64,000 bases of DNA from an uncultured Candidatus Saccharibacteria bacterium (GTDB lineage: Bacteria > Patescibacteriota > Minisyncoccia > Phycocordibacterales > UBA9973): NCBI GenBank assembly GCA_964646765.1, contig CAZYIA010000001.1, positions 341,621-405,620 on the forward strand. The letters run 5' to 3'. This document shows positions 13,227 through 56,336 of the stretch, piece by piece (position 1 is the first letter of the stretch; every line of letters begins with the position of its first letter). The notes under the pieces are model-generated. The model had not been told where the DNA came from and made no database searches. It saw nothing but the letters and a program-made list of their open reading frames with translations. Position numbers and translations under genes: made by a program.

Positions 13227-13345
13227 ACGGGAAGAATTTTCCCTCGCCTCTTGCTGTGCCGTCGCACAGCTCGGGCTGGGCACCGCCTCGCGGTTTGCTT
13301 TGCTAAGCAAACAACGCTCCGGCGTTCGAATCCTTACGGAAGCAA
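13227..13345 (+). other. Copy 1 of a duplicated structured element of about 100 nt. It is a candidate ncRNA of unknown class.
   Basis: It is about 85% identical to 26871..26990. Its hairpins are CTGTGCCGTCGCACAG and TTTGCTTTGCTAAGCAAA. A TTCGAATCC T-loop-like motif follows. Confidence 0.4.
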
Positions 13346-14663: not shown

Positions 14664-14689
14664 AAAAAACGGCCTTGAAGCCGTTTTTT
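14664..14689. terminator. Bidirectional terminator hairpin
   Basis: AAAAAACGGC-CTTGAA-GCCGTTTTTT. Confidence 0.55.
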
Positions 14690-14692
14690 AGT

Positions 14693-14890
14693 GTGTCTCT
14701 ATTGTACCAAGTTAGAACCTATTTCCAAAATAAATAAAGCGGACGAATTTTTGCGAAACAATTTTTCTGGGGAAAAGGATTCGCAAAAATTCGGCTGATT
14801 TTTTTTGAAATTCGGACTCGCCCGCGCGGAGGAGGGGTCTGGGGAGGAATCCGCGCGGGCTTCGGCTTTTTGTTTTTTGGCGGGGCGGGC
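14693..14890. repeat. IR1-L, a 198-bp perfect inverted repeat whose partner is 16809..17006
   Basis: Comparing the two arms by eye, they are exact reverse complements. Each arm contains a GC-rich hairpin, GCCCGCGCGGA...TCCGCGCGGGC, followed by a T-tract. Confidence 0.9.
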
Positions 14891-14928: not shown

Positions 14929-15423
14929 ATGGAAAATCCAGAGTTAAATCACGAAAAACCTCCTATTGCTGTTGAGAAAATATCTCACATTTTTTCGTCT
15001 AATGCCGAAAAGCGTATTTGTGTTGTTGGTGCAAGCTGTGTAGGAAAATCTACTTTACTTCGGTTTTTGCCAGAAGCTGTTGATATGGACGATTTGCTTT
15101 TCGGCAACAAACAAAAAGGAATTGAGCCATTACTTACACAACAAGAAAGAGATTATGTCTGTGGGCCTTGGACACCAGAAGTCGGTCAATTTATGACCAA
15201 GAAAGCCCACGAACTTATAAAAATTGAAGCAGGTCATCCAGTTTTCGGCACAATCGTTTTTCCATCAGATTTAGTAATTGAAGTGTCTGTTCCCGACGAT
15301 ATTTTACGAGAAAGGATTAGGCGAAGAAACTCAAATGAGCAAGATGTTTTTAACATGAAAGCACAAATTGAATCTGAAATTGAAAAGTCGGGTATAGAGA
15401 AAATTGTTATTGAAAATATATGA
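14929..15423 (+). CDS. Small P-loop NTPase (kinase-like)
   Basis: Walker A motif VVGASCVGKST. The protein is 164 aa. Confidence 0.45.
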   Translation: MENPELNHEKPPIAVEKISHIFSSNAEKRICVVGASCVGKSTLLRFLPEAVDMDDLLFGNKQKGIEPLLTQQERDYVCGPWTPEVGQFMTKKAHELIKIEAGHPVFGTIVFPSDLVIEVSVPDDILRERIRRRNSNEQDVFNMKAQIESEIEKSGIEKIVIENI

Positions 15424-16043
15424 AAATAATTCTCGCCTCAGATTTAAGTTTTCTTTTGAAATACGGTTATGATTTAACTGGCATTCCAAAGTCCGAAATG
15501 AAAATCGGATATATTACAACCGCTTCAAAAGGATCAAGAGATACGGCATTTCTTGAAAAAGTTAAAAATGCGATGAAAGAAAACGGTATTGATTTTGAGG
15601 AAATTGATATTGAGGGTAAAAGCAAAGATGAAATACTTAACTTTTTCAAGAACAAAAACATTATTCATGTTGAGGGCGGAAATACTTTTTATTTGCTAAA
15701 AGCAATTAGAGAAAGTGGTTTTGCAGAGGCACTGAAAGAATTATTGAACGAGGGGAAAATTTATATCGGCACAAGTGCGGGAGCGTATGTTATGTGTCCA
15801 ACTATTGAAGTAGCAAACTGGAATGAAACTGGTAGAGATAGATTTGGTTTAACTGATTTTTCAGCGTTAAATTATGTACCTTTTGTTTTGAAAGTCCATT
15901 ACAAAGACGAAATGGAAAATACAGTGAAAGAAAAAATGAGAACTCTAAAATATCCGCTTAGAATTTTGCGAGACGGACAAGGGATTTTGGTCGAAAATGG
16001 TGAATATGAATTTGTCGGAGATAATCCCGAAGTAATTTTTTAA
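15420..16043 (+). CDS. Peptidase family S51 (dipeptidase E / cyanophycinase-like)
   Basis: The family-typical HVEGGNTFYLL motif and IGTSAGA (Ser nucleophile region) are present. Confidence 0.6.
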   Translation: MKIILASDLSFLLKYGYDLTGIPKSEMKIGYITTASKGSRDTAFLEKVKNAMKENGIDFEEIDIEGKSKDEILNFFKNKNIIHVEGGNTFYLLKAIRESGFAEALKELLNEGKIYIGTSAGAYVMCPTIEVANWNETGRDRFGLTDFSALNYVPFVLKVHYKDEMENTVKEKMRTLKYPLRILRDGQGILVENGEYEFVGDNPEVIF

Positions 16044-16047
16044 ATTT

Positions 16048-16788
16048 ATGATTAAGCCCATTATTCTTGCAAAAGGAAATTTTAAGCCAGAAGATTTAAT
16101 GACAACAGTCAGTGAATCTAATAGGAAAATTGATCCGAACAGAGAAAATCAATTAAACACTCTTTGGGCGGAAAAAGAGAAGAATGCCAAAGAAAAGGGC
16201 AAATTAATATATAACGGACTTTCTTATCGCTTAAATAGCTTAAAAGCTGAAAATGGTAAATTGTTTTTAGATTTTGGAATTTTTGATTTTAAAACTAGAG
16301 AATGTTTACCGGAAACTCCCGGATTTTACGAAACGACGGAAGAATATTGGCGTAAAGGATGCCATACTATTGCTACAGTTAAAACCTCTGACGATAGGTA
16401 TTTAATGGTGGAACTTTCTGGAAAATCAATGAATAAAAACACAATTGAATTTTTGGGTGGCATAATGGAAACAGAACCACCAATAAAATTAGGTAAGGAC
16501 ATTTTCCATTCGTTATATAAAGAATTGGAAGAGGAAGCGTTTATTACTGAATCAGATATTGCCGATTCTAATTTAAAAATGGTTTATATAAATTGGAATA
16601 CAAATGTTGGTTTTTATTTTGAGATTTTATTAAAACTTACTTCAGAACAATTACAAGAAAGATTTAATGAACAAACAAAAGAAATTGATATTAAATCTCT
16701 AAAAATTATGTCTCGCCCAGAATATATCAATGTGTTAGAGAATCATAACCCTAATAAACAATTTTTAGCGAAGCAAATAGAGATTTAA
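16048..16788 (+). CDS. Hypothetical protein with a weak Nudix-like KELEEEAF segment that is not convincing
   Basis: The ORF is 246 aa. It is the third gene of the IR1-flanked cassette. Confidence 0.35.
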   Translation: MIKPIILAKGNFKPEDLMTTVSESNRKIDPNRENQLNTLWAEKEKNAKEKGKLIYNGLSYRLNSLKAENGKLFLDFGIFDFKTRECLPETPGFYETTEEYWRKGCHTIATVKTSDDRYLMVELSGKSMNKNTIEFLGGIMETEPPIKLGKDIFHSLYKELEEEAFITESDIADSNLKMVYINWNTNVGFYFEILLKLTSEQLQERFNEQTKEIDIKSLKIMSRPEYINVLENHNPNKQFLAKQIEI

Positions 16789-16808: not shown

Positions 16809-17006
16809 GCCCGCCCCGCCAAAAAACAAAAAGCCGAAGCCCGCGCGGATTCCTCCCCAGACCCCTCCTCCGCGCGGGCGAGTCCGAATTTCAAAAAAAA
16901 TCAGCCGAATTTTTGCGAATCCTTTTCCCCAGAAAAATTGTTTCGCAAAAATTCGTCCGCTTTATTTATTTTGGAAATAGGTTCTAACTTGGTACAATAG
17001 AGACAC
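16809..17006. repeat. IR1-R, a 198-bp perfect inverted repeat
   Basis: It is the reverse complement of 14693..14890. Confidence 0.9.
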
Positions 17007-17148
17007 CAGAATTTTACTAATCGGTTTTTTGGAAGCCCCAATGCGGGACGCGCGAAGCGCGTCCCAAGGATTCCCGCCGATTTTTCCTAATGAATTTGGA
17101 GCGTCGCCTTCGGCGACGCGCACTGTTTTCTCGCCAAGAAGCAGGTTC
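17004..17148. repeat. IR2-L, a 145-bp perfect inverted repeat whose partner is 18733..18877
   Basis: It is the exact reverse complement of IR2-R. It contains hairpins GGGACGCGC-GAA-GCGCGTCCC and GCGTCGCC-TTCG-GCGACGC. It overlaps IR1-R by 3 bp. Confidence 0.9.
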
Positions 17149-17344
17149 AAAATCAGAAGCAATTTTGACTCAGAGTATTTGCTTTGATACAAAAAGAATT
17201 TTTGCCTTTTTTCTAAAAGTAGTATAATGACCTTGCGCAAACTTACGGAAGGTCTATTTTAATGGCCGTCTTGGACTTATCTAGATCTTCTAGGTTTGCG
17301 CACCAGGGCGGCCATTTAAGTTTTATCAATTAATTTTTATTTCT

Positions 17345-18919
17345 ATGCAAAAATTCTTTTTGTATGCTCGCAAGTCAACCGATGTTGAAGATAAACAAGT
17401 GTTATCAATAGACGCTCAACTCACCGAATTGCGGGAGTTCGCCAAGAGAGAAAATTTAGTCATCGCCCGTGAGTTTATAGAAAAACAATCTGCTAAAATT
17501 CCAGGTCGTCCCGTTTTTAATGAAATGATGAAGTGTATTGAAAAGGGCGATGCAGATTGTATTCTCTCTTGGCATCCAGATCGTCTTGCCCGCAATTCAG
17601 TTGATGGTGGCAAGATTATTTACTTTTTAGACATCGGATTGCTTGCGAGCCTCAAATTCCCACAGTTTTGGTTTGAAAGTACGCCACAGGGCAAATTTAC
17701 GCTTTCTATGGCATTTGTACAAAGCAAATACTATGTAGATTCTCTTTCCGATAACACGAAAAGAGGACTTCGCCAAAAAGTACGCATGGGAATATTCCCA
17801 AGCCAAGCGCCAATCGGTTATATAAACGACAGTCGCACCAAAACGATTGTGGTAGAAAAGAAGAAAGCAAAAATCTTGCGCTTGGCTTTTGAACGATATG
17901 TGAAAGGAAATCAAAGGTTAGAGGATATCGCAACTTTTTTGGCAAAGAACGGAATATCTACGCGTTCCGGAAAGAGAATCTCAAAAACGAGAGTGGCTTT
18001 CATTTTGTCCAATCTGTTCTATGTCGGACTTTTTAACTATGCCGGTGAACTTCACGAGGGTAAGCACGAGCCAATCATTTCAAAGAAACTTTTTGATGAA
18101 GCACAGGAAATGCTGAAACTTCGTGGACAACCAGAGCGTAAACCACAAAATGAACCCCAATCTTTCTGCGGACTCATTTCCTGTGCCTCATGCGGGATGA
18201 TGATAACTGGCGAATACAAGGTGAAGAAACAGAAAAATGGCAATGTCCACAATTACACCTACTACCACTGCACGAAAAAACGCAAAGATATGAAATGTCC
18301 CGAACCTTGTATTCGGGAAGAAGAATTAGATCGCCAGTTATCATCTCTAATCAAAAAAGTTTCTTTGCCCAAAGACTGGGCGGAGGAATTGTTAAAAATG
18401 GCAGAAAACGAACATGGAAATTCCGCCCAGTCTTTGACTGCTTGTGTGAAAGAGAACGAAACAAAAATATCGGTCATTTCACAAAAGTTGGAGCGACTTC
18501 TTAATGGATATTTAGAGCAAGATATTGAAAAAGAAGTTTATCGCATAGAAAAAGCAAAACTTGTGTTGCAAAAGAAGTCGCTTGAAGAAGAAATGACCTC
18601 TCTTTCACACAAGCAGAATGATTGGCTCGAACCCTTTACCGAATGGGTGAAAGCCGCTCAATCATTGGACAAAATTGCTTCTGATGATGACCTTTTTGCA
18701 AAAAAGGTCAAAGCCAAAGAAATCTTTGGCTCGAACCTGCTTCTTGGCGAGAAAACAGTGCGCGTCGCCGAAGGCGACGCTCCAAATTCATTAGGAAAAA
18801 TCGGCGGGAATCCTTGGGACGCGCTTCGCGCGTCCCGCATTGGGGCTTCCAAAAAACCGATTAGTAAAATTCTGGTGCGCCGGGAAGGATTCGAACCTTC
18901 GCAGCCCGAAGGCGCTTGA
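17345..18919 (+). CDS. Large serine recombinase (resolvase/invertase catalytic domain, recombinase domain and zinc ribbon)
   Basis: Catalytic region YARKSTDVEDKQ..SIDAQ and W.PDRLARN. There is a Cys-rich zinc ribbon, CGLISCASCG...YYHCTKKRKDMKCPEPC. The 3' tail is encoded by IR2-R and runs antisense into tRNA-Tyr. Confidence 0.85.
   Translation: MQKFFLYARKSTDVEDKQVLSIDAQLTELREFAKRENLVIAREFIEKQSAKIPGRPVFNEMMKCIEKGDADCILSWHPDRLARNSVDGGKIIYFLDIGLLASLKFPQFWFESTPQGKFTLSMAFVQSKYYVDSLSDNTKRGLRQKVRMGIFPSQAPIGYINDSRTKTIVVEKKKAKILRLAFERYVKGNQRLEDIATFLAKNGISTRSGKRISKTRVAFILSNLFYVGLFNYAGELHEGKHEPIISKKLFDEAQEMLKLRGQPERKPQNEPQSFCGLISCASCGMMITGEYKVKKQKNGNVHNYTYYHCTKKRKDMKCPEPCIREEELDRQLSSLIKKVSLPKDWAEELLKMAENEHGNSAQSLTACVKENETKISVISQKLERLLNGYLEQDIEKEVYRIEKAKLVLQKKSLEEEMTSLSHKQNDWLEPFTEWVKAAQSLDKIASDDDLFAKKVKAKEIFGSNLLLGEKTVRVAEGDAPNSLGKIGGNPWDALRASRIGASKKPISKILVRREGFEPSQPEGA
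18733..18877. repeat. IR2-R, a 145-bp perfect inverted repeat
   Basis: It is the reverse complement of 17004..17148. It ends within the CACCA 3' end of tRNA-Tyr. Confidence 0.9.
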
Positions 18920-18958
18920 TTTACAGTCAAGTGCGATTGACCACTCCGCCACCGACGC
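18873..18958 (-). tRNA. tRNA-Tyr(GTA), type II, with CCA encoded
   Basis: Acceptor stem GCGTCGG/CCGGCGC. Anticodon stem CTTGA/TCAAG with loop CTGTAAA. There is a long variable arm. T-arm GAAGG-TTCGAAT-CCTTC. The 3' end is ACCA. Confidence 0.8.
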
Positions 18959-26541: not shown

Positions 26542-26613
26542 GGCCTAGTCGCCAAGTGGTAAGGCAAGGGTCTGCAAAACCCTTATACGGCGGTTCGATT
26601 CCGCCCTAGGCCT
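26542..26613 (+). tRNA. tRNA-Cys(GCA)
   Basis: Acceptor stem GGCCTAG/CTAGGCC. Anticodon stem AGGGT/ACCCT with loop CTGCAAA. T-arm GGCGG-TTCGATT-CCGCC. Confidence 0.8.
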
Positions 26614-26620
26614 CAACAAC

Positions 26621-26655
26621 AAAAAACAACTAGAGAATACCTCTAGTTGTTTTTT
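26621..26655. terminator. Bidirectional intrinsic terminator between convergent tRNA genes
   Basis: AAAAAACAACTAGAG-AATAC-CTCTAGTTGTTTTTT. Confidence 0.65.
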
Positions 26656-26659
26656 GTTG

Positions 26660-45216: not shown

Positions 45217-45288
45217 TCCGCGGTAGCTCAGCGGTAGAGCGTCCCGCTGTTAACGGGAGGGTCCCTGGTTCGAATCCAGGCCGCGGAG
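45217..45288 (+). tRNA. tRNA-Asn(GTT)
   Basis: Acceptor stem TCCGCGG/CCGCGGA. Anticodon stem TCCCG/CGGGA with loop CTGTTAA. T-arm CCTGG-TTCGAAT-CCAGG. Confidence 0.85.
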
Positions 45289-46995
45289 CATAGTAGAAAA
45301 AACTGGCGAAAACTCGCTGGTTTTTTCGTTTAAGCTTTTCATATCAAGCCAATTCTTAGGTTCGGACTTTTGAAATTCGCTTTCCATCAAAGAAACTACT
45401 TCAAAGAGCTTCTCAACTGATTTTTGCTTGATAACACTAACTTTTTCTTCATCCCACACTAGGTTCGTACCAAGTCTATGAAGTAGTGATTTTTTAGCTT
45501 TTAATTGACCATTCTGCATTACATCAAAGAACTCTTGAGACAGGTCAATAATCTCATTTGCTCTCTTGGTCCAGTCAAAGGTATTAGTTGGCTTATTAGA
45601 GGTCTTAAAACGCTCCTCAAGGTCTCTTAAATCGCTTTTGTATTCATCTTCGGTGATAAGCTCATTAGCCAATATTTTACGCATCTTCCTCTTCATATCC
45701 TCATATTCATCCGATTGCTTTAAGGCTATTTCTTCCTTAAGAAGATTTTCATTAATCTCATTGTCTCTAAGCTCGCTTATGAACTTTCTAGCCCAATCAG
45801 CTACTTTCTGAGACATAGGTATTTTACCTTTTGCATCAGCAAGTAAGGCGGTCATTATTTTGTCAGAATTAATAGACTTAACTCCTAGTTTTTTCTTCTT
45901 ACGAGTTATGTTGTAGTAGTAAGAGTAATCTAAATACTTTGGTTTTTCCATTTTATCTATCTCAATACCACACTGAGGGCATTGAGTTTTGTCTCTGTAA
46001 GGAAATTTGTTTTTGCAATCACAGATAACCTGATACTTCTTATCAAGCCCAATGTATTCACCATTTGGAGAAGATACAAAACCTACAAAAACATCATCGT
46101 GTGTTTGTGTCTTTGGGATATTTCTCCTTTGTAAGATTGCTTTTATTTTATTGTGTTCATCTTCCGTGATTAAGCGAGGCAACTCTTTATCTAGTTCATA
46201 TCTTTCACCTCCATAGAAAAAGAAACCAGCGTAAATTGGGTCTGTAAGTATTTCATATATTCTTGATAGTTGAATGAGTTCACCTCCAATTCTTTTTCTT
46301 CTAACAGTAGTGAGCTTAAGGTCTTTTGTTGCATATCCGTGTAGCTTGCCAGCGGACCATTCACCAGTTAAAAAAGTTTTCAGTATCTGTTGTATTTTGG
46401 GAAGTCTTTCCTTATCAACTAACCATTTTCTATTTCCTTTTTCTTCTGTTTTGTCGTTTAGAAAACCGAGAGAAGCAACTCCGTGAGGTATACCCAGTGT
46501 TGCTTTCTTGGTCTGACCACGTTTAACATTTATAGATAAATCTTTTACAAACTGTTTACCTTGCCCAAATTCAACAGACATAAGTAAAACATTGTCAGTT
46601 GGATAATAAACCTTATCGTGAGTAATAATTGCTTTTAGAACACCAGAGCTTAGTAAATCAATCAACATTCCTCCCTCGGTCATATTTCGTGCCAATCGGT
46701 CAAGTTTCCAACACACAATGGCATCAATTACACCGCTTTTTATCATAGCTATCATCTCGCCAAATTGAGGTCTAACAAACTCTTTTTTGGCTGATTTCGC
46801 TTCTTGAAATATTTGTATAAACTTTGGGAGCTTATAGTACTCAGCAATCCTTTGAGCTTCTTCAATTTGCGAAACCACTGAAAGCATTTGCTTATCTTCA
46901 CTCTCAGAAGACTTTCTGTTGTAATTTACTGGCTTTAATTTTGTGAAATCAAGTTGTATATAATTATTCATAAATAAAAATGAGGTAACGACCAT
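45250..46995 (-). CDS. Large serine recombinase/integrase, paralogous to the one at 17345..18919
   Basis: Catalytic segment NRKSSESEDKQ and W.LDRLARN, a recombinase domain, and a zinc ribbon CDCKNKF...CPQCG. The last 13 codons overlap the tRNA-Asn 3' half. Confidence 0.85.
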   Translation of the reverse strand: MVVTSFLFMNNYIQLDFTKLKPVNYNRKSSESEDKQMLSVVSQIEEAQRIAEYYKLPKFIQIFQEAKSAKKEFVRPQFGEMIAMIKSGVIDAIVCWKLDRLARNMTEGGMLIDLLSSGVLKAIITHDKVYYPTDNVLLMSVEFGQGKQFVKDLSINVKRGQTKKATLGIPHGVASLGFLNDKTEEKGNRKWLVDKERLPKIQQILKTFLTGEWSAGKLHGYATKDLKLTTVRRKRIGGELIQLSRIYEILTDPIYAGFFFYGGERYELDKELPRLITEDEHNKIKAILQRRNIPKTQTHDDVFVGFVSSPNGEYIGLDKKYQVICDCKNKFPYRDKTQCPQCGIEIDKMEKPKYLDYSYYYNITRKKKKLGVKSINSDKIMTALLADAKGKIPMSQKVADWARKFISELRDNEINENLLKEEIALKQSDEYEDMKRKMRKILANELITEDEYKSDLRDLEERFKTSNKPTNTFDWTKRANEIIDLSQEFFDVMQNGQLKAKKSLLHRLGTNLVWDEEKVSVIKQKSVEKLFEVVSLMESEFQKSEPKNWLDMKSLNEKTSEFSPVFSTMLRGLDSNQGPSR

Positions 46996-47425
46996 TACTT
47001 AAGTTGCTACACCAAGTGGGTCATTACCTCGTTTTTATCCACAAAAATACTTAATTATAGTAAAAGTATTTTTATGATATTCACCTGGTGTAGCACTTAC
47101 ATTTTATCACAGTTGTAAGTATCTGTTTATCTTTACTCTATCCAAAAAGATAGTTAAAAGCCCTATATAATAGATGCTTTACTTAACCGTTTGATGATTA
47201 TTTTTATTCTCATCTCAAGTACGGAAACTATATTTTCCTTATTCAGTATTGCTATTACCACAATACAACTTAGACCTTATGTAGTTCTTAGTATCGGGTA
47301 GGATTATAGTTTTACATTGTTCCTATTTATCCCGCTTTTCTTTACTCCCTCCAACTAGGATTGCTGTCCCAGACATCAGTTATAAAGTCCTTATATTTTT
47401 ACAGCTATAAGGTCCGCCCACCGTT

Positions 47426-47471
47426 AGAGTCATTACTGACTCTGTACTGTCTACTGCAATAGACAGTACAG
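47426..47471. repeat. Twin perfect palindromes inside the AT-rich noncoding block
   Basis: AGAGTCA-TTAC-TGACTCT is directly followed by CTGTACTGTCTA-CTGCAA-TAGACAGTACAG. Confidence 0.6.
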
Positions 47472-47660
47472 AATTAGCAATTATTTTCTATTCTTAACTT
47501 CAAACCTTGAGCCATAATTTCAAGAAACAACTGACCTAAATGGTCCAGTTCTTCTTCTGATAAAGAATTAACAAAAACCTCTCCATATTCTTTCTGGAGA
47601 ACTTCTTTAAGTTCAGTTAATGCTTTGTTACTAAGACTCATAGTTTGAGTCCTCTCGTAT

Positions 47661-47686
47661 GCAAAAAGCAGTCTAGAGGACTGCTT
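47661..47686 (-). terminator. Intrinsic terminator for the minus-strand gene ending at 47724
   Basis: The minus strand reads AAGCAGTCCTCTAGACTGCTTTTTGC. Confidence 0.5.
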
Positions 47687-47723
47687 ATATTGTCGTATTT
47701 ATCTCTATTTACCTCAGCCCCTT

Positions 47724-48557
47724 TTAAGGGATTTGCTTAAATAATCCAATTTTAATTTGAGTCTTATTTTTCTTTGCTTTTTCTATAATTGCCTTAACAT
47801 AGTCAGCCTTATAAGGTCCATTTTTAGGTGATTTTAGATTAAATCTGTGGAAAAGATAATGTGCTATTAATTCGTATTTTGCTCTATACAAGGCAATTCT
47901 TTTACCGTTTGGTGAAAAATGTGATTTGTATTCTGTGGGAAATTTTAAAGCAAAAGCATCTCTTATTTCTTCAGAGCTAAATGTATCTAAAACACGGACC
48001 CATAAATCAAAATTATAACTTTCTTCTTTTCTAGCACGATTTTTTTGTCTTTTAATGCTAACTCCAATTTCCTTGAACTTATTTATTAGGTTATTTTCTT
48101 TTTTATTTAAAAAATCTGCAATTTGTTTTTTGTCTCCTCCTGGAAGTATTTTTAGATAAAGTGCCTTTTCTTTGTCGTTACTAACAAACCAAGAGATATT
48201 CTCAAAGGGTACTTCTGTATCGTATTGAATACCACCAAATAAAAGAATTTCTTGCACTACAAAATTCCAATCCTCTCTCATAATCAGGTATTGGTATTCA
48301 GGATATTTTTTTGCTAAAGCCTTACGAAAATTTACAAAAGCTTTTTCAAGCTTAGAATTTGTGTTGATTATATTACTAACAAAATCTTTTCTATACAAAA
48401 AAGAAGTCCATTCATATTTATCAATCAAAAAATCAAATTGATGACCATCTATACCACCAATTTTTCTGTACTTTTCAGCGATAACTTCAGTTTCTAAACT
48501 GTCTATTTTTTCTAGAGCTAATCTTTTTCTTTTGTCACTTGGTGTAGCATTTTTCAT
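47724..48557 (-). CDS. Hypothetical protein encoded immediately downstream of res
   Basis: The ORF is 277 aa and lysine-rich. No motif was recognised. Confidence 0.4.
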   Translation of the reverse strand: MKNATPSDKRKRLALEKIDSLETEVIAEKYRKIGGIDGHQFDFLIDKYEWTSFLYRKDFVSNIINTNSKLEKAFVNFRKALAKKYPEYQYLIMREDWNFVVQEILLFGGIQYDTEVPFENISWFVSNDKEKALYLKILPGGDKKQIADFLNKKENNLINKFKEIGVSIKRQKNRARKEESYNFDLWVRVLDTFSSEEIRDAFALKFPTEYKSHFSPNGKRIALYRAKYELIAHYLFHRFNLKSPKNGPYKADYVKAIIEKAKKNKTQIKIGLFKQIP

Positions 48558-48565
48558 AAACGAGT

Positions 48566-51214
48566 TTATAATAATTCTTTTTCAAAAGTTTCTCCAAAAA
48601 GATTTTCATCTCCATTGTTGTAAAAAGGCATACCCCAGACAGTGTATTTTCTATCCTCCCAAAGCTGTTCAATTTTATGTTCTTTTTTAAGGGATACCAA
48701 GAAGTTTTGCTTCCAAGCATCTGCTTGTTTTAAGTGATTTCCTTTTGGTTCTACAAACACCTGATAGTGAAGACTCTTTGGTTTTGCTTTTTGATATAGG
48801 AATAGTACGAAATCCGGTTCCAGTGGTCTTCCATCATCAAAGTTATAGAGTTTGAAAAATCTTTCGTTACGAACCAAGTAAACTTCATCATATTTTTCAC
48901 GAAGTTGGTTATAGATTTTATCTATATATTTTATGAAATACTTTTCTTCTGAAGTACCAAAGCAGTCATTGAATACATACCAAGATTTATTACTGAGGTC
49001 CAAATAAATACTAGTTTCCTGAGCATTATTAATTGATTTACCAAACTCCTTATCCTCACTTTCATTTTCAGCAAAATTAAGGACCTTTTCTGAAATTTTA
49101 TCCTTAATCATATAAGGTTTAAATTCCTTGCTTCCTTTATACTCTAGTTTTTCACTAGATACGCTCTTAGAAACCTGTTCTAGAACCTGTAAAACAGCGT
49201 CTAGGACATCATCAGGGCTTAAGGCTTCTAGTTGGCTAGATAAGCCTGAAATAGTCATCTTAAGGCTTCCTAGGTAGTTTTTATCAGTTATAAACTCATC
49301 TAAACTCTCAAGGTTCGGGAAATAAGTTTTAAGGTTTGAGAATGAGTAAAACTCAAGCTTATAGATAGCTTTTTTAACTACTGTTTTATTAAAATCTTTG
49401 ATAGAAAAATCTTTCTCCGCCTTGTTTACGCCTTTCTTTGTTTGTTCTTCAAATAGTCCGCTAGAGAGGTTAAATCCGGTTCTAAGAGAAACTCGGTAGA
49501 GAGTGTCTCTTACTGAAGACGGTAATCCGAAAACATCTTCTCTGGTATATTTTTGTTGTTCATTTAAGAAAAGCATACCGGATTTATAGAATTTACTTTC
49601 TTTAAAATCATCTTTAATTTTAAAATCTCTTTTGACTGTCTTATCAGCAACAATACCGGTTTTTACTAGAGCAGAATTAAGCTCTTGAATGTATTTGGGG
49701 TTATAAGTACTGTGATAGTAAAGCTCCTCACAAATTCTCATTTCATTTGTTACATCTCCGTCAAATTTTCTCTTTGATGCTTGGTCAGTCTCATTAAGTT
49801 TAAATGGACAGTATCTAGCACCACGCCCAATAAGTTGAGCTTCTTTTATAGTTGTTTCTCCTGGTTTATTGTTTTTTGCATCACGAGTATCATAAAGACG
49901 AACAATATCAAAAAGATTAAGGACATCCCAACCCTCATTAAGTTTATCTACAGCGAAAACAGCTCTATACTCATTGTTGGGAGCTTCTAGGGTATTAATA
50001 GCTAATTGTTTCTCTTCACTTTCTTCCTTACTGTTTACTGAGATAGTTTTTTCAGCGGAAAAATCTTCCTTTAGTTCAGCTACTAAGTTCTCAAGTGTAA
50101 TTTTCTGAGTATCAAAATACTCAAACATTTTAACTAGGACCTCGTCTTTTGCATTAGCTTTAATACTACTTAATTTTTTAACAGTAAGTGCTTCTATTCC
50201 CTTAATAAACTCTTCTTGAAAGTCTTTACTATCAGCAATAGTCTTTGATTTGAATAACAGGACCGGTTTAATAACTTGTTTATTTCTCTCAAAAATCTTT
50301 CTACGATACTGACTGAGTAAGATAGCTTGTAATGCACGGTCAAAAAGGTCCGCATCAGCCTGAAGAACTTTTACATCTTTAGAATATCCATCTATACGAA
50401 ACTGCTTCAAAGGATAATCAAATACAAGTCTTTCAGCGTACTTCTTGGCTATGTTTGTATTAGTAAAATCAACAGTAGCGGTAAATTCTAAAAGTACATT
50501 CTGAGGGTTAGCATTAAAAATTCTGTTTACTGTACTTTCCCAAGAGATAATCTCTTCAGCTTCTTCTTTAGACACCTGACCGTTAATAGCCACACCACCA
50601 AACACATCGGTACGGAGACCAGCTTTTGTCTCAACATTTATATGGTGAGCTTCATCAGAAATAAGTACTATTTTCTTATCTTGAAAATCATCATAAGTTA
50701 GACTATTTTCCTGAGGATTTGTGAGTCTTGTATGAAGTCCTTGAATAGTAGAGAAGCAGATATTAATACAGTCATCATTACCGGCTTGGAAATTAGTTAC
50801 TTCTTTGAGAGTTATTTTCTTATCTCCCAAAGAAACATTCTTATTAAAAAGATATTTGATTGATGAGTCGTTGAAAAAATTATCTCGTGTTTTATCTATA
50901 ATATTTGTACTGTTTACGAAAAAGAGAAAGTTTCTATATCCTTGTTCATACAGATAGAGAATAAGACCAGCCATAATAAGTGTCTTACCGCTACCAGTAG
51001 CCATATGGAAAAGGAGTTGAGATTTGGCTGGTTTACCATCAAATTTTTCATTCCAGTAATTTAGGAAATACTGAAAAGCCCTCTCTTGATAAGGTCTAAT
51101 TTCAAAGTTCTGATTGAGGTTTTTAGTTATAAATTCAGGGACTGGAGTAGCTTCTATTCCACGCTTACCAAACTCAGACTCAAGTATTTTGTTTAATGTC
51201 TTAATCTCGTCCAT
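48566..51214 (-). CDS. res: Type III restriction enzyme Res subunit
   Basis: Helicase motifs I (HMATGSGKT) and II (LISDEAHH), a long C-terminal region, and 14-nt overlap coupling with the mod gene. Confidence 0.8.
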   Translation of the reverse strand: MDEIKTLNKILESEFGKRGIEATPVPEFITKNLNQNFEIRPYQERAFQYFLNYWNEKFDGKPAKSQLLFHMATGSGKTLIMAGLILYLYEQGYRNFLFFVNSTNIIDKTRDNFFNDSSIKYLFNKNVSLGDKKITLKEVTNFQAGNDDCINICFSTIQGLHTRLTNPQENSLTYDDFQDKKIVLISDEAHHINVETKAGLRTDVFGGVAINGQVSKEEAEEIISWESTVNRIFNANPQNVLLEFTATVDFTNTNIAKKYAERLVFDYPLKQFRIDGYSKDVKVLQADADLFDRALQAILLSQYRRKIFERNKQVIKPVLLFKSKTIADSKDFQEEFIKGIEALTVKKLSSIKANAKDEVLVKMFEYFDTQKITLENLVAELKEDFSAEKTISVNSKEESEEKQLAINTLEAPNNEYRAVFAVDKLNEGWDVLNLFDIVRLYDTRDAKNNKPGETTIKEAQLIGRGARYCPFKLNETDQASKRKFDGDVTNEMRICEELYYHSTYNPKYIQELNSALVKTGIVADKTVKRDFKIKDDFKESKFYKSGMLFLNEQQKYTREDVFGLPSSVRDTLYRVSLRTGFNLSSGLFEEQTKKGVNKAEKDFSIKDFNKTVVKKAIYKLEFYSFSNLKTYFPNLESLDEFITDKNYLGSLKMTISGLSSQLEALSPDDVLDAVLQVLEQVSKSVSSEKLEYKGSKEFKPYMIKDKISEKVLNFAENESEDKEFGKSINNAQETSIYLDLSNKSWYVFNDCFGTSEEKYFIKYIDKIYNQLREKYDEVYLVRNERFFKLYNFDDGRPLEPDFVLFLYQKAKPKSLHYQVFVEPKGNHLKQADAWKQNFLVSLKKEHKIEQLWEDRKYTVWGMPFYNNGDENLFGETFEKELL

Positions 51215-53108
51215 AGAATTTTTTATTCAAAGCTATGTCTTCTTTAGAGATTTTATATGTCTTATCTTCAATTTCAGAATAAGGTACATAGAGCATATTT
51301 TTGTCTAGGGTAGAGATTAAGAATTTTTGTTGGTCCTCAAATGAAAGACTCTCAAAATCTTTCTTAGTGGCATCAATTTCTTCAGGCTTTACTTTATAAC
51401 TCAAAAAAGCAGTCTTCTTCATTTCATCCCATACCTTAAGAAGTTCTTTTGTGTTTTTTGAGTCTTGGATTTTATCTACAAAAAGCTGGTTAGCTTGTGT
51501 TAGTTCAGCATAAACAAAACTACCTTTCTTTGCCTCTTTTATTACTCTGTATACTCTTTCTCTAGTAACTTTTTCTATGTAGTCCATTTGTTCACAGATA
51601 ATAAATTTTCTATTACCTTTATCTTCATCATTCAAGGCAAGTACAGCGTGTGCTGTTGTACCACTTCCACCAAAAAAGTCTAAAACAATGTCATCATCAG
51701 AAGTCATTATCTTTAAAGTATCAAGAACGGTGTATAAAGATTTTGGATAACTAAATAAATTACCCCCTAAGATTTTTTTGAGTAAGTTTGTGCCATTAAA
51801 TTCAGACTGATATTTTTTGTCTGTCCACACATTCTTATAAACCTGCTGTTCTCTTAGTTTGTGATAAATTACTATTTTATTATTTTCCTCTTTAGCAATG
51901 AAATAATCATCGTGATTTAATTCATCAAATGATTGCTTGATATTTTTCCAAGCCATTTCTTTACCGTTATTGGTAATAGGAAAAATCTCGTGATAACCTG
52001 ATTTCTTTTCAGAAGTTATTGTTTTTAAATCTTTGCTTACATAAATCGGATACCAGTTATTTGGCTTATTTTGTCTAGACCAAACTGTTCTGGCTCTTAG
52101 GAATGGCTCATATCTAAAACTACCATCATCATCACTTTCTGAGAAAGACTCTTTAACAGCCTCATCAATAGCAACTTGGTTAAATTCTGCTTGTTCAACA
52201 TTCTTTGCGTATACAAGCATAAATTCACTATTTGGAGAGAAAAATTTAGAAAGATTTCTACCTTTTGGATTATGTAAGACAGTTACAACTCCCACACGGT
52301 TTTCTCTACCAAAAATTTCATCGGCTAAAGCACCTAAATAAAATAATTCGGCGTGGTCAATGGCAATAGCAATAAATCCATCCTCAGTAATAAAATCTTT
52401 AGCAACTTCAAGCCTATTTTTCATAAAAGTAAGCCAGGTTGAATGTTTAAATGTATTGTTATATGCGAAAGTATCACCATCAGAACCTGTGTTGTATGGC
52501 GGGTCAATATAAACAAGTTTAACTTTTTGCTTATATTTATTTCTTAGAGAATATAGACTTAACAAATTATTTCCCTTAATAATCAAATTATCCTGAAGAC
52601 TTATTTCATTGACTGTTTTTGCTCCTTTTTCATCAAATTTTTTAAAGTTTGTAAGAACTTTTGGTTCAAGAAGTTTATCAATTTCGTCCGGTGCAAGTGT
52701 CTCATTCCAGAATATCTCCTCGCGATTTGCATCTTCCTGATTTTGTCCACCCTCAAGAATAGCGTCTTTATATGGAAAAGCTAAAACAACCTCATCGTTG
52801 TCTGTGAGATATTGCTTATCAGAAGTAAGACCTACTTTATTTTTGTACTCAGTAAAACTATCCGGCAAAAATTGTTTATTAGAAACAAAACTTTGAAATT
52901 TCGCTTTATCAAAAATAAGGACACCATCTACTTCCTGAAAGAAAGTTTTATTTAGGTCCTTTGAGGAACGGAGTATTTTAAGCAAATCAACATCAAGTTG
53001 AAGAGCAAGTTCAATAACTTTGTTTTTAGCAAGTTTACCGTCAATAACAAGACGGTCATCTTTTGAGAGTTTTTCTATAAGTTCTTGGTGTAGCTTCATA
53101 TAAAGCAT
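51201..53108 (-). CDS. mod: Type III modification methyltransferase Mod subunit (N6-adenine, beta-class)
   Basis: Motif IV VYIDPPYN precedes motif I DFFGGSGTT. Confidence 0.8.
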   Translation of the reverse strand: MLYMKLHQELIEKLSKDDRLVIDGKLAKNKVIELALQLDVDLLKILRSSKDLNKTFFQEVDGVLIFDKAKFQSFVSNKQFLPDSFTEYKNKVGLTSDKQYLTDNDEVVLAFPYKDAILEGGQNQEDANREEIFWNETLAPDEIDKLLEPKVLTNFKKFDEKGAKTVNEISLQDNLIIKGNNLLSLYSLRNKYKQKVKLVYIDPPYNTGSDGDTFAYNNTFKHSTWLTFMKNRLEVAKDFITEDGFIAIAIDHAELFYLGALADEIFGRENRVGVVTVLHNPKGRNLSKFFSPNSEFMLVYAKNVEQAEFNQVAIDEAVKESFSESDDDGSFRYEPFLRARTVWSRQNKPNNWYPIYVSKDLKTITSEKKSGYHEIFPITNNGKEMAWKNIKQSFDELNHDDYFIAKEENNKIVIYHKLREQQVYKNVWTDKKYQSEFNGTNLLKKILGGNLFSYPKSLYTVLDTLKIMTSDDDIVLDFFGGSGTTAHAVLALNDEDKGNRKFIICEQMDYIEKVTRERVYRVIKEAKKGSFVYAELTQANQLFVDKIQDSKNTKELLKVWDEMKKTAFLSYKVKPEEIDATKKDFESLSFEDQQKFLISTLDKNMLYVPYSEIEDKTYKISKEDIALNKKFYGRD

Positions 53109-53263
53109 TTTACCAAAAATTCTTTAATTAAGAAAGAAAATTTGCTATACTGAAAAAACAATTTAATAGACGACCTAACCCGATAGGAATTTCCTAGCGA
53201 TATGGTCATAAACACCGCAAAAGTATAAAAACCCCTTAGTCTAGGGTCACTTTTGCGGTCACA

Positions 53264-53620
53264 TTGGGAAACTGGTGTGGGTGGGTAATACCATCGTCCT
53301 GGCTAAGGGATTTTTGTATGGAAAATTCTATGTCAGGCTATAAATCCGCAAAAGTTTTTATGACAAAATATGATATTGGTTTAATGTTGATTATCTTTGC
53401 AATAGGTTTTGATTTAGTTTCTTTAAGAAAAGAGGTTCGTAGATTAAGTATCAAACTTATGAATAAATTAGATAAGCCAACAGAATTAGAAAAGCAAATT
53501 GAAGAGAGAAAAAAGAAACCTTATTTAACAAAAGAGGAATTAGATAAGGTTATGACTCCTGAGGAAAAAGAAATAAGAAAGAAATTATTCGGCAGTGAAT
53601 ATCCAAAAGAAATTGATTAA
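53264..53620 (+). CDS. Small membrane or coiled-coil hypothetical protein
   Basis: One TM helix and a K/E-rich C-terminus. Confidence 0.3.
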   Translation: MGNWCGWVIPSSWLRDFCMENSMSGYKSAKVFMTKYDIGLMLIIFAIGFDLVSLRKEVRRLSIKLMNKLDKPTELEKQIEERKKKPYLTKEELDKVMTPEEKEIRKKLFGSEYPKEID

Positions 53621-53621
53621 A

Positions 53622-54023
53622 TTAGAGGTTGTCTTTAAATTTATTTACAATTCTGTCAGAAAGAACATCATAATCTAATCCTCTAGTGAACATAGGTGGA
53701 AAATCGTAGAGGTCCGAAGTATCAAACCTAGCATTTGAACTCCAATCATTTTTAAACTTCCTTTCAAGTATCCAGGCTGTTGCTTTCCAATCTTTTTCTC
53801 CAGCTTTTTCAATGCGTTTGAGTAGTTTTTGTTTGTACTCAATCATTTTTTGACCCATTTGTTCTGAAAATTCTGAATTGTGTCTTTTCCATAAACAGAT
53901 GGTATCTTCAGAAATACCAGCAAGTAAGGCACAGTCACGCTGTGTCATTCCATTAGCTAAACCATCAAGAATTATTGCAACTCTTTCAGGTGTCATCTTA
54001 TAAGGTTTGTTAGTTTTCGCCAT
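53622..54023 (-). CDS. HTH protein resembling the N-terminus of phage terminase small subunits
   Basis: MTPERVAIILDGLANGMTQRDCALLAGISEDTICLWKRHNSEF. Confidence 0.45.
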   Translation of the reverse strand: MAKTNKPYKMTPERVAIILDGLANGMTQRDCALLAGISEDTICLWKRHNSEFSEQMGQKMIEYKQKLLKRIEKAGEKDWKATAWILERKFKNDWSSNARFDTSDLYDFPPMFTRGLDYDVLSDRIVNKFKDNL

Positions 54024-54119
54024 AGCAAATAAGTTTAATTACTTAATAATTGCTATTGCAGTAGCTCTTTACATTATATCAAAAAGTCGTGAAAAATGTT
54101 AAAGTAGACTTACTTTTCA

Positions 54120-55238
54120 ATGCAGAATACAACAGACAACAAAAATATACCTGACATAAACAAAACTCTTGTTGCCCCAAGTGTGGCACTTGTAATTGTT
54201 GGTAAAACTTCATTAAAAAAGAAGCGAAGAAAAAGAAAAAAGGATATAAAAGAGTACTTAAGAAGAAAAGCTGAAAAAGCACTCCGTAGAAAGAGAAGAA
54301 AAAAGTTAAGAGGTAAAAGACAAAGTCTGATACTAACCCCGAAGAAAAAGAACAGTCACACAAAAAAGTCAGTACCTGCTAATTTTTCTTTAGTAAATAA
54401 TACTGAAGAAGTTATTGGGTATTTTAAGGATGTTGGAAAAACTTTTGCTAATAGAGAGCAAGTAGCTTTTGACCTAGAGGGAGTTGAACAACTTTCACCT
54501 GATGCGATTGCTCTTCTTGTTGCAAAGGTTAATGATGTTAATTTTACACGAGGTCTAAATATGATTGGAAACAGTCCTCTAAAAGCGGAAATAAAGAAGA
54601 TATTTGATGACTCTAGATTTCTAGAACACGTGCAAGCCAGATATACTCCTCCACCAAATGAAAGTAATTTATTAATCCACCAAAAAACACAGAAAAAAGT
54701 TCATCCAGAAATTGCTAAACAAGTTGGAGAACTTGCGGTCCGGCATACTTTTAAAGATACAAGAAAGTTTCAGCCAATTTTTAAAATGATGATTGAGTGT
54801 ATGGCAAACACAGACAATCACGCCAACCTAAAATTAGAAGGTTTTTATGACTGGTGGATATTTACTTATTGTGACCCAGATACTAACATAACATCATTTT
54901 CTTTCTTGGACTTGGGTGTAGGTATCTTTAATAGTAATCCTGTTAATAGCTACAAGCAAAAATTTTTGAACACTATTCAATCTGCAACAGGTTTAAATGT
55001 GAGTAATAATTCAAAATTAGTTCCAAAGCTATTCTCTGGAGAAATATATACATCAAGAACTAAGGATAAAACTAGAGGACAAGGACTTCCTAGTCTTAAA
55101 GAATGTGCTGAGAACTCTCATATTAAAAATATGACAATTATCACAAATAATGTTAAAATAAGCTTACCTAGCTTAGTGACAGTTGAATTAAGTAATAAAT
55201 TTAATGGCACTTTTTTGTATTGGGAGTTACACCCTTAA
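54120..55238 (+). CDS. GHKL-family (histidine-kinase-like) ATPase with a highly basic N-terminal tail
   Basis: N-box ECMANTDNHANL, G1 box FLDLGVGIF and G2 box TRGQGLPSL. The N-terminus is KKKRRKRKKD...RRKRRKKLRGKR. Confidence 0.45.
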   Translation: MQNTTDNKNIPDINKTLVAPSVALVIVGKTSLKKKRRKRKKDIKEYLRRKAEKALRRKRRKKLRGKRQSLILTPKKKNSHTKKSVPANFSLVNNTEEVIGYFKDVGKTFANREQVAFDLEGVEQLSPDAIALLVAKVNDVNFTRGLNMIGNSPLKAEIKKIFDDSRFLEHVQARYTPPPNESNLLIHQKTQKKVHPEIAKQVGELAVRHTFKDTRKFQPIFKMMIECMANTDNHANLKLEGFYDWWIFTYCDPDTNITSFSFLDLGVGIFNSNPVNSYKQKFLNTIQSATGLNVSNNSKLVPKLFSGEIYTSRTKDKTRGQGLPSLKECAENSHIKNMTIITNNVKISLPSLVTVELSNKFNGTFLYWELHP

Positions 55239-55576
55239 TTAATATGGAACAGATTAAAATCATAGTTGCGACAGAATTCTCAGATGCACCTGGTGCAAGG
55301 TTTATTTCCGATGGAGAAAATTCAGGGGAACTTTTCTATAATACTTTACTGAAAGATAGGTTTACTGAGGCAAAAAATGCAAATACCAAACTCCTCATAG
55401 ACCTTGATAATACTTGGGGTTATGCTTCTTCTTTTATATCAGGTGCTTTTGGTAGACTAGCTGATGAATTCGGTAAAAATACTGCAATTAAACATCTTGA
55501 TATTAAATCAGATGATGACCCTACTTTGTTCCAAAAAATAAAAGATGAGATTAACAAGTCTAGTAATAATGCTTAA
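55220..55576 (+). CDS. Small partner protein of the GHKL ATPase (possibly STAS/DUF4325-like)
   Basis: It is 118 aa and overlaps the ATPase gene at the 3' end, which suggests translational coupling. It contains IIVATEFSDAPGARF...LLIDLDN. Confidence 0.35.
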   Translation: MGVTPLINMEQIKIIVATEFSDAPGARFISDGENSGELFYNTLLKDRFTEAKNANTKLLIDLDNTWGYASSFISGAFGRLADEFGKNTAIKHLDIKSDDDPTLFQKIKDEINKSSNNA

Positions 55577-56165
55577 ATCTATTGGTAAACATCTCCATAC
55601 AATCATTATCTGGATACTCATTTTTCTAGGTGGATTTGTTGCTGGAAGAATAGTTAAAGATATTCCATATTTAACTCTTGAAACAAAAGTTGGCATAGGC
55701 GATATTGCAAATTTTGTCATTGCGACTGTGGTTGCTGTGCTTATCCCTGTATCGCTAAGTCCTATTCTTAAAAACAAAAGAGTTATTAAAGACTTTCTTA
55801 TTGATGAGGTAAAAGACTGTATTGATTTCCTAACCTCAATTAAAGCATCTGTAGATGATATGGCTATTAGAGGAAGTAGCGAGGAAAGTGACCGTGTGAA
55901 AATAAATTCAATGATTGCTCAAGACTTAGGAATGAAAATCGGCTCTCTCGCAGAACAGCTTGAGGTATCTTTCAAAAATAAGTGTCCTGAAATCAAAACA
56001 GCTCTTACTGAGAGATATGGCGAATATTGGAGAGAAATGACTGGTGGTGACCTAATGTCACAGAATTTCACATTCAGTCTTGGTTTTCGTGCTACACACG
56101 ATAGAAATTACGCTAAATTACAGGCTTGTCTAAAAAAGACAATACACGAGATAAATAACTTTTAG
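55569..56165 (+). CDS. Membrane hypothetical protein
   Basis: Two to three N-terminal TM helices. The start was set at an internal Met to limit overlap. Confidence 0.35.
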   Translation: MLKSIGKHLHTIIIWILIFLGGFVAGRIVKDIPYLTLETKVGIGDIANFVIATVVAVLIPVSLSPILKNKRVIKDFLIDEVKDCIDFLTSIKASVDDMAIRGSSEESDRVKINSMIAQDLGMKIGSLAEQLEVSFKNKCPEIKTALTERYGEYWREMTGGDLMSQNFTFSLGFRATHDRNYAKLQACLKKTIHEINNF

Positions 56166-56336
56166 TTTATATTTTCCTCTATTATTGCCTTTCGCACTTC
56201 GTCCCAAGTTCGGAGCTCTAATTTGACTAAATATTTTTTCGTGTTAAAGTGCGATTGAGCGCTGTTTTTTGATACATGTTTTATGGTTGCCAGAAGAGGC
56301 AATTCCCTTTTGTGGTAACCATAAAACTATTAGAAG

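Follow-up and report, generated by a model that had tools for sequence, protein, structure and literature searches.

We analyzed a 64,000-nucleotide (nt) window from the genome of an uncultured Candidatus Saccharibacteria bacterium (contig CAZYIA010000001.1), in which two recombinase genes, here called Rec1 and Rec2, end inside tRNA genes. Rec1 encodes 524 aa, has the C terminus ...RREGFEPSQPEGA, and converges on tRNA-Tyr(gta), where its open reading frame (ORF) covers 47 nt of the 3' part of the tRNA. Rec2 encodes 581 aa, has the C terminus ...RGLDSNQGPSR, and converges on tRNA-Asn(gtt). The Rec2 stop codon is the TTA of the tRNA-Asn anticodon loop, and the overlap is 40 nt by the ARAGORN coordinates and 39 nt by the Rfam tRNA end at 45288. 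An earlier annotation made from the letters of this DNA (the sequence-only reading) had reported overlaps of 47 and 39 nt with tRNA-Tyr and tRNA-Asn and had taken both genes for serine, not tyrosine, integrases at tRNA genes. Comparing the ARAGORN tRNA calls with the ORF ends, we found that the overlaps are real (Table 1).

To assign the two proteins, we searched them against domain and protein families. Both match Pfam Resolvase (PF00239; E = 1.2e-19 for Rec1 and 7.9e-15 for Rec2) and carry the YxRxS motif with the catalytic serine, as YARKS in Rec1 and YNRKS in Rec2. The Recombinase domain (PF07508) was found in Rec1 with E = 2.7e-17 and in Rec2 with 22.8 bits (E = 1.2e-4), just over the 21.1-bit cutoff. 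Rec1 also matches Zn_ribbon_recom (PF13408) with 34.1 bits against a cutoff of 25.3 bits. Rec2 has no Pfam zinc-ribbon match; its four cysteines C325, C327, C339, and C342 are invariant in 24 homologs. The two proteins are homologous but distant, with 26% identity over 523 aa (E = 7e-31), and both are remotely related to solved or named large serine recombinases (LSRs), namely, A118 Int (E about 1e-9), SPbeta SprA, CcrB, and XisF.

We considered four other assignments and rejected each of them. The named LSR equivalogs (CcrA/B/C and XisF) fall far below their cutoffs; the best NCBIfam score was 118 bits for CcrB, against a cutoff of 900, and XisF scored 82.6 against 375. An IS607-family serine transposon, which would have a MerR-like DNA-binding domain in front of the catalytic domain and lack a large C-terminal domain, is disfavored by an NCBIfam IS607 score of 19.8 bits against a 110-bit cutoff and by the N-terminal position of the catalytic domain. 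Small serine DNA invertases of the Hin/Gin type have about 190 aa, a C-terminal helix-turn-helix (HTH), and short inverted sites, whereas Rec1 and Rec2 are 524 and 581 aa long with LSR domains, and the inverted repeats near Rec1, unlike invertase sites, are 145 to 198 nt long and constitute attachment (att) half-sites. For a tyrosine-integrase tRNA island, we found no Phage_integrase match, and the repeats are only GTG (3 nt) for Rec1 and CGGAGC (6 nt) for Rec2; no long direct repeat of the tRNA 3' end (tens of nt), as in tyrosine-type islands, was found at the far end of either element. The zinc ribbon of Rec2 aside, Rec1 and Rec2 pass those LSR tests that a sequence can address. We concluded that they are large serine integrases, predicted to catalyze unidirectional recombination between attP and attB.

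To determine if the tRNA arrangement is conserved, as the sequence-only reading implied, we tabulated the features next to homologs. A database search at E ≤ 1e-10 gave at least 7,887 relatives of Rec1, and we examined 80 genome loci of the family, of which 68 were informative, meaning that DNA was kept past the gene end. For the Rec2 family (at least 861 relatives), 63 of the 80 metagenome loci examined were informative. The best 120 Rec1 matches are mostly 73 to 93% identical to Rec1. The available source names, which are few, and the locus record titles of Rec1 relatives mostly indicate lineages of Patescibacteria (Candidate Phyla Radiation [CPR]). We found that an opposite-strand tRNA or transfer-messenger RNA (tmRNA) was called exactly at the junction in 63 of the 68 informative Rec1-family loci; two of the remaining five have a T-arm that was not called, and three have a different conserved sequence, the arm A described below. 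The partners are tRNAs for Leu, Arg, Gly, Val, Tyr, Ile, Lys, Met, Glu, and Ala and one tmRNA. The tmRNA gene, at positions 1813 to 2193 of locus L027 (loci are given by our L numbers), is joined at the same CAC as the tRNA genes. In the Rec2 family, 42 of the 63 informative loci have a convergent tRNA overlap (33 Asn, 5 Ser, 3 Trp, and 1 Asp). The arrangement is conserved, across hundreds of homologs, and not due to chance.

We then located the crossover by asking where element-derived sequence begins. In the Rec1 family it starts at CAC, which corresponds to C72-A73-C74 of the tRNA and is invariant in all 52 aligned arms and junctions. The sequence common to the three element junctions (J1, J2, and J3, described below) is only CAC, GCAC, or CACCA in nine complete Rec1-family loci. 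In the Rec2 family, the conserved element end reads ...TTTTTTCTAcnATGCTC, and the L081 element of another genome, with 87% nt identity to the island that carries Rec2, stops resembling the window at 45286. By these alignments, the Rec1 crossover is placed within CAC and the Rec2 crossover within GAGC, tRNA positions 71 to 74. A crossover at these positions leaves the tRNA body untouched and replaces only the trailer, the terminator, and the CCA, and it makes the overlaps of 47 and 40 nt host tRNA DNA rather than element DNA.

This bears on what the antisense tails are. Rec1-family tails run for 8 to more than 39 aa before a stop, and the antisense reading V-xxx-G-[LIFV]-E-P occurs in about 52 of 66 junctions. 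The G-[LIFV]-E-P part recurs among tails only because the junction keeps a constant distance from the T-loop. Most Rec2 homologs meet a stop 2 codons past the junction because the tRNA-Asn T-stem supplies TAG. We rejected the tail peptide as a conserved motif, since its length varies, most Rec2 tails stop after 2 codons, and the two families use different frames. The antisense tail is probably without function. Loci without an attached tRNA, in both families, carry a different and better-conserved tail, which in Rec1 reads ...ILV-x-LLYQVRTYFQN[KR] and is encoded across the other attP half-site. In this unintegrated (attP) configuration, the ORF extends past the core by about 14 to 16 codons in Rec1 and by about 15 in Rec2.

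The interpretation in the sequence-only reading was thus partly supported. Serine integrases at tRNA genes and a conserved arrangement were borne out, as was the placement of attP at the 3' end of the integrase gene: the attP core is inside the 3' end of the ORF. Its view that integration restores the tRNA is not supported, since the tRNA body is never interrupted and there is nothing to restore. Nor are the C-terminal extensions conserved as proteins. The T-arm reading G-[FL]-[ED]-[PS] that it ascribed to both recombinases is not shared, because Rec1 reads GGA-TTC-GAA-CC (G-F-E-P) and Rec2 reads GAT-TCG-AAC (D-S-N), one base out of register. On these frames, the resemblance of the two tails is coincidental.

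Previous work on serine integrases demonstrated that the motif bound by the zinc-ribbon domain lies 5 bp nearer the center in attB than in attP (Rutherford et al., PMC3783163). We measured the corresponding distances in both families. In the Rec1 family, the spacing from GGTTC(G)A to the core is 15 nt on the tRNA half and 19 nt on the arm-A half, whose consensus is TTTTGaAAATAGGTtCtaacTTGGTAcAATAgAga followed by CAC, a shift of 4 bp. In the Rec2 family, TCGAAC begins at nt 13 past the junction in tRNA-Asn, and a T-loop-like TCGAAC or CCGAAC begins at nt 18 in six loci that have no tRNA (L086, L092, and L099 to L102), a shift of 5 bp. Judged by these spacings, the T-loop shift in both families matches the published attP/attB signature. 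The core shared by attP and attB is 3 to 6 nt. The trailer-side half of attB shows no conservation beyond T-richness, so specificity seems to rest on the tRNA half alone.

The most unusual feature of the locus, missed by the sequence-only reading, is that Rec1 is surrounded by perfect inverted repeats. Two arm pairs, A/A' and B/B', abut with a 3-nt overlap, and together they produce three junctions with one core: J1 between the flank and arm A (GTG at 14693), J2 between arm A' and arm B (CAC at 17004), and J3 between arm B' and tRNA-Tyr (GTG at 18875). Read on the opposite strand, J2 matches letter for letter the attP rebuilt from attL (J1) and attR (J3). Thus, the integrated 4.2-kb element holds attL, attR, and an intact inverted attP.

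Table 1. Features of the Rec1 and Rec2 elements in the window (roles as predicted from sequence)
Feature	Position	Strand	Remarks
Hairpin and T-run AAAAAACGGCCTTGAAGCCGTTTTTT	14664..14690		Probable original tRNA-Tyr trailer/terminator, displaced 4.2 kb by the insertion
Arm A	14693..14890	+	Outer end and GTG core (14693-14695) form attL (J1); 198-nt, 100% inverted repeat with 16809-17006
Cargo, three ORFs	14929..16788	+	GC 0.33-0.35 versus about 0.42 in the flanks
Cargo ORF, AAA-like kinase	14929-15423
Cargo ORF, Peptidase_S51	15420-16043
Cargo ORF without family match	16048-16788
Arm A'	16809..17006	-	Inverted copy of arm A; last 35 nt are a conserved P-type half-site with T-loop mimic GGTTCTAAC (logo)
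CAC core of intact internal attP	17004..17006		J2, arm A' to arm B; inverted relative to attL and attR
Arm B	17004..17148	+	Inverted copy of the last ~48 Rec1 codons; 145-nt, 100% inverted repeat with 18733-18877; carries hairpin 1 and terminator-like hairpin 2; terminator-like site at 17101-17119
Unique Rec1 upstream region	17149..17344	+	TTGCCT-17-TATAAT promoter-like site and structured leader, read by eye
Rec1	17345..18919	+	Large serine recombinase; codons ~463-510 in arm B'; last 14 codons are antisense tRNA-Tyr
Arm B'	18733..18877	+	End and GTG core (18875-18877) form attR (J3) with tRNA-Tyr
tRNA-Tyr(gta)	18873..18958	-	Putative attB host gene of the Rec1 element; tRNA intact; CA completing CCA comes from the element
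tRNA-Asn(gtt)	45217..45289	+	Putative attB host gene of the Rec2 island; attL core GAGC at 45286-45289
Rec2	45250..46995	-	Large serine recombinase; last 12 codons (RGLDSNQGPSR and stop) are antisense tRNA-Asn
Rec2 island	~45290..56216		10.9 kb, low GC (0.30-0.35), mobilized by Rec2 as predicted; 87% nt-identical element L081 in another genome
Type III restriction-modification system in Rec2 island	Res 48566-51214, Mod 51201-53108		Pfam matches
attR of Rec2 island	56190..56216	-	Recombinase strand GCTC, then CGAACTTGGGACGAAGTGCGAAAGG; P-type half-site with T-loop mimic

The unoccupied tRNA-Leu(tag) of the same window was our comparator for an empty site. When the hairpin left of J1 is joined to the end of tRNA-Tyr, the sequence becomes ...CCGGCG-CAC-ACTAAAAAACGGCTTCAAGGCCGTTTTTT, which has the layout of the unoccupied tRNA genes in the window. 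The reconstructed site, tRNA-Tyr ...CGGCGCAC directly joined to ACTAAAAAACGG, is an ordinary tRNA-plus-terminator locus. All nine tRNA genes in the window (e.g., 1574 to 1657 and 26659 to 26741) lack a native CCA; they end in N73-C74, followed by a non-C base, and diverge from there. The sole encoded CCA in the window is that of tRNA-Tyr, completed by the inserted Rec1 element. The tRNA-Leu(tag) gene that is unoccupied in the window is occupied by a Rec1-type element in L035, L064, and L162. It belongs to a Cys/Leu(taa)/Lys(ctt)/Leu(tag) cluster at 26542 to 27109, which is unoccupied as a whole in the window. Rec1-type elements occupy this cluster at Leu(tag) or Leu(taa) in the genomes of L024, L026, L035, L036, L064, and L162, and its gene order and orientation vary among genomes, which would fit tRNA-to-tRNA inversions.

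We found the double-repeat architecture again, with a different cargo each time, in L008, L020, L021, L040, L051, L066, L076, and L079. B-type repeats of about 147 nt with 95 to 100% identity occur in about 60 of the 80 Rec1 loci. Of the 28 loci with the J2-type pattern, 27 contain a single copy, and L009 contains two. Arm A' adjoins arm B in every informative locus unless a tRNA is there. The cargo differs at every Rec1-family locus and includes no replication or transfer genes. A search for the attP junction pattern in IMG/VR, made to look for a phage association, gave 0 matches, and an Rfam search of the Rec1 arms returned tRNA and no other RNA family.

Repeats of this kind raise the question of an assembly artifact or a chance ORF extension. 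Many homologs lie at contig ends or on contigs of 1.7 to 2.5 kb, as expected where assemblers struggle, and the 145-nt arm is near the largest k-mer sizes common in metagenome assemblers. However, the same architecture is present in contigs whose names indicate different assemblers (k141, NODE, and scaffold), arms reach 315 nt and so are longer than any k-mer, and in more than 60 loci the position of the junction with respect to the tRNA is exact to the base. We consider an artifact very improbable; the inverted repeats themselves explain why so many homologs sit at contig ends or on short contigs.

The arms at one locus are 95 to 100% identical, far above the mean column identity of 63% between loci. 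This, together with the position of the recombinase gene within perfect inverted repeats and the occurrence in nature of both recombinase orientations relative to the tRNA, could also suggest a domesticated inversion switch, in which Rec1 is a Hin-like invertase that flips its own gene and the neighboring cargo and is not the integrase of a mobile element. We consider this unlikely. A switch does not account for partner tRNAs and cargo that change from locus to locus or for empty sites that can be reconstructed, and the junctions follow attL/attP/attR logic, with a T-loop mimic that fits the attP/attB rule. Rec1 has the architecture of an LSR rather than that of a small invertase with a C-terminal HTH, and LSRs are known not to recombine attP with attL or attR.

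We propose instead that Rec1 and Rec2 are integrases of small integrative elements whose attB is the extreme 3' terminus of a tRNA gene, and we give this reading, with the following mechanism, a probability of about 0.75. One half of attB would be the tRNA acceptor and T-arm, with the T-loop GGTTCGA acting as the zinc-ribbon motif, and the other half would be the nonconserved trailer. Rec1 would exchange strands inside C72-A73-C74 of any tRNA or tmRNA with CAC there, and Rec2 would do so inside G71-A72-G73-C74, mostly in tRNA-Asn. The attP half that matches the tRNA half would be a T-loop mimic whose distance from the core is greater by 4 bp in Rec1 and by 5 bp in Rec2. Since the attP core is inside the integrase ORF, the ORF would continue after integration into the antisense tRNA until a chance stop, and the overlap would be passive. 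The Rec1 element would give its tRNA a new trailer, which here completes the CCA, and hairpins that include a terminator-like one.

We infer that the free form of the Rec1 element is a circle in which two inverted attP copies of about 343 bp (A' plus B) separate the cargo from the recombinase segment, much as in the yeast 2-micron plasmid. Integration would consume one copy, so that attL, attR, and one intact inverted attP remain and Rec1 comes to be flanked by perfect inverted repeats. The near identity of the arms within a locus, set against the divergence between loci, implies homogenization or flipping by homologous recombination. The internal attP probably stays usable, as judged from the layout of several loci. 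In L053, the recombinase lies between two tRNA genes and the arms are 98.9% identical, and L011, L012, and L013 also have tRNAs on both sides. This is the expected product of recombination between J2 and a second tRNA gene and suggests that the internal attP is probably active.

These loci also bear on a further possibility, that the locus combines two separate elements with terminal inverted repeats, an autonomous B...B' element with a palindromic attP and, beside it, a nonautonomous cargo element A...A'. Each segment does have its own perfect inverted repeat, and the pairs abut with only the 3-nt core in common. But in every informative locus arm B is bordered on its outer side by arm A' or a tRNA, never by ordinary flanking DNA, and a recombinase-only element was never seen. 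A palindromic B'/B attP would be without the T-loop-mimic half-site that matches the tRNA half, and a tRNA on both sides of the recombinase would be hard to obtain. Two adjacent elements are therefore an improbable explanation.

Several observations weigh against the proposed mechanism. Only L009 has the recombinase between two intact attP junctions, the topology of the free form, and its arms are just 90.6% identical. We also examined L161 and L162, which have the attP-type protein tail, as possible free circles and rejected both; L161 is uninformative, and L162 is a flipped integrated copy. A symmetric circle predicts that both orientations are equally frequent, whereas the recombinase converges on the tRNA about 9:1 among loci and about 4:1 among protein tails (80 to 90%). 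The Rec1 motif shift is 4 bp and not the canonical 5 bp. The end of arm A is also coding and promoter-like, so other constraints could account in part for its resemblance to a T-loop. We identified no candidate directionality factor. For the orientation bias, we can offer a speculation: read-through from the tRNA into arm B', antisense to the recombinase and stopping at the terminator-like hairpin 2 (18780 to 18762), may silence the recombinase and stabilize this state.

Going further, the Rec1 family might be a widespread class of CPR-specific minimal integrative cassettes whose integrase reads the universal T-loop and CAC, needs one attB half-site, and can use almost any tRNA or tmRNA gene. 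Their twin attP sites would form a flip-flop like that of the 2-micron plasmid, and the attP left in the chromosome would capture other tRNA genes and drive the tRNA inversions and cluster reshuffling seen among CPR genomes. An integrase of this kind would need no landing pad and would find its site in every genome. We hold this extended view tentatively and think the odds are somewhat against it.

The arms contain structures of their own. Hairpin 1 is a 9-bp stem, GGGACGCGC-GAA-GCGCGTCCC, with a GAA or AAA triloop; it lies inside the Rec1 codons at 18816 to 18836 and has a copy at 17045 to 17065 (alignment A2, columns 42 to 62). Over 52 sequences, compensatory double changes occur at 5 of 8 pairs, and three pairs are broken, each in one sequence. 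The changes in the stem carry the amino acids along, so the last approximately 50 residues of Rec1 look constrained by DNA or RNA structure and not by protein function. In a promoter scan, we found a promoter-like site (TTGGAA, 16 nt, TG-n-TACAAT) at 16971 to 16998 on the plus strand and at 14728 to 14701 on the minus strand, which points outward across the core. Besides being promoter-like, the conserved outer 35 nt of arm A code for the attP-type tail of Rec1 and form the proposed half-site. The Rec1 leader (17232 to 17340) includes a long hairpin, ATGGCCGTC...GGCGGCCAT, at about 17262 to 17316, which is nearly identical in the closest relative, L161, and different in L162. This hairpin may be regulatory. 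In L162, a second, truncated Rec1-type gene (8691 to 9091 and 9607 to 10007; 86% identical) lies inverted directly after an arm-A stub, downstream of the flipped element, and looks like part of a nested or rearranged element pair.

The Rec2 element is a simpler island. We located its attR by using the attP-type half as a probe, and it falls exactly at the GC-content boundary. There, CGGAGC at 56211 to 56216 repeats the 6 nt at 45284 to 45289, and the alignment of this site to attP of L092 and L086 is more than 40 nt long. Inverted repeats like those around Rec1 were found in none of the 80 Rec2 loci. A LOOT RNA (Rfam RF03000; 74.5 bits, with a gathering score of 46.4) is located inside the island at 53172 to 53295 on the plus strand, with the type III methylase gene on one side and the next ORFs on the other. 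In L081 (7713 to 7800), L106, and L119, the Rec2 homolog adjoins only the 3' half of a tRNA-Asn gene, which is cut in the anticodon loop (...CGCTTA/C...). This suggests that a second element, one that targets the anticodon loop, has entered the same tRNA and that the islands are in tandem.

Two other repeats were found in the window. A GC-rich direct repeat of 98 nt (13240 to 13337 and 26885 to 26981; 88% identity) ends in the T-arm-like GGCGTTCGA(A/T)CC. One copy is beside an APH-like gene and the other is within the tRNA cluster, and the repeat has no Rfam match at the gathering score. By self-comparison, a direct repeat of about 365 nt occurs three to four times in tandem at 11013 to 12410, with 73 to 78% identity; the copies probably represent a repeated protein domain unrelated to the recombinases.

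In textbooks, tRNA genes are the territory of tyrosine integrases, and serine integrases are key tools of genome engineering. The LSRs of phages and of integrative and conjugative elements (A118/LI Int, SPbeta SprA, phiC31, and Bxb1) resemble Rec1 and Rec2 in having Resolvase and Recombinase domains, a zinc ribbon (putative in Rec2), and a long C-terminal region, a very short shared att core, an attP motif about 5 bp further out than in attB, and an integrase gene that adjoins the att site. Here, in contrast, the target is the last bases of a tRNA, specificity seems confined to one attB half-site, the Rec1 family accepts many tRNAs, the attP core is inside the integrase ORF, and the Rec1 element has two inverted attP copies; the sequence relationship is also remote.

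Other serine recombinases have been found with tRNA genes. The phage phiRSM uses the 3' end of tRNA-Ser. Its Int is a site-specific integrase of the small, core-only serine class (PMC7192596). In the same work, Mageeney et al. (2020) found tRNA or tmRNA use by 14 of 297 serine-integrase elements and noted that such use had not been reported before and needs proof. Of 937 tycheposons and related cryptic elements, 27 carry an LSR gene (bioRxiv 10.1101/2020.12.28.424599). Like Rec1 and Rec2, phiRSM and the LSR-bearing tycheposons combine a serine-family recombinase with a tRNA gene; unlike them, neither shows a T-loop-mimic attP, multi-tRNA targeting, or inverted repeats, and the study of the tycheposons did not describe att sites for the LSR-bearing ones.

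Further systems share single traits with these elements. Archaeal integrases of the SSV1 type are tyrosine recombinases with attP in the integrase ORF and a tRNA target, and integration alters their coding sequence. The SSV1 integrase gene is split into two large parts, and the provirus is bounded by a long direct repeat derived from the tRNA. In the present elements, no more than the last approximately 15 codons are swapped, the repeat is 3 to 6 nt, and the enzyme is a serine recombinase. Hin, Gin, and Cin are small serine recombinases that act on 26-bp sites with an enhancer, and the recombinase gene is in or near the inverted-repeat segment. The yeast 2-micron plasmid has two unique segments between two inverted recombination sites, and FLP is a tyrosine recombinase that acts on its own repeats. 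In contrast to both, the Rec1 repeats are attP copies, which an LSR is not expected to recombine with each other. SCCmec, whose CcrB is the nearest to Rec1 among NCBIfam families at a score far below its cutoff, likewise enters a conserved housekeeping gene at its extreme 3' end and leaves the gene active. Unlike the Rec1 element, it has a protein-coding target (rlmH), two recombinases (CcrAB), and no inverted attP.

The large LSR survey of Durrant et al. makes no mention of tRNA or Patescibacteria. In searches of the literature on serine recombinases with tRNA and Patescibacteria/CPR, we found no description of these elements. They are set apart by the tRNA-tail attB for serine integrases, the T-loop-mimic attP, the targeting of many tRNAs within one family, and the twin inverted attP.

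These results point to two very large integrase families that routinely use tRNA 3' ends, which is rare for serine integrases. The T-loop in attB and its shifted mimic in attP directly parallel the structural model of attP/attB discrimination by these enzymes and offer a natural test of it. Rec1-type enzymes might work across many organisms, inserting at conserved sites with no preinstalled landing pad. For CPR bacteria themselves, whose genomes otherwise seem poor in mobile elements, the intact inverted attP that the element retains could explain assembly breaks and tRNA-linked rearrangements.

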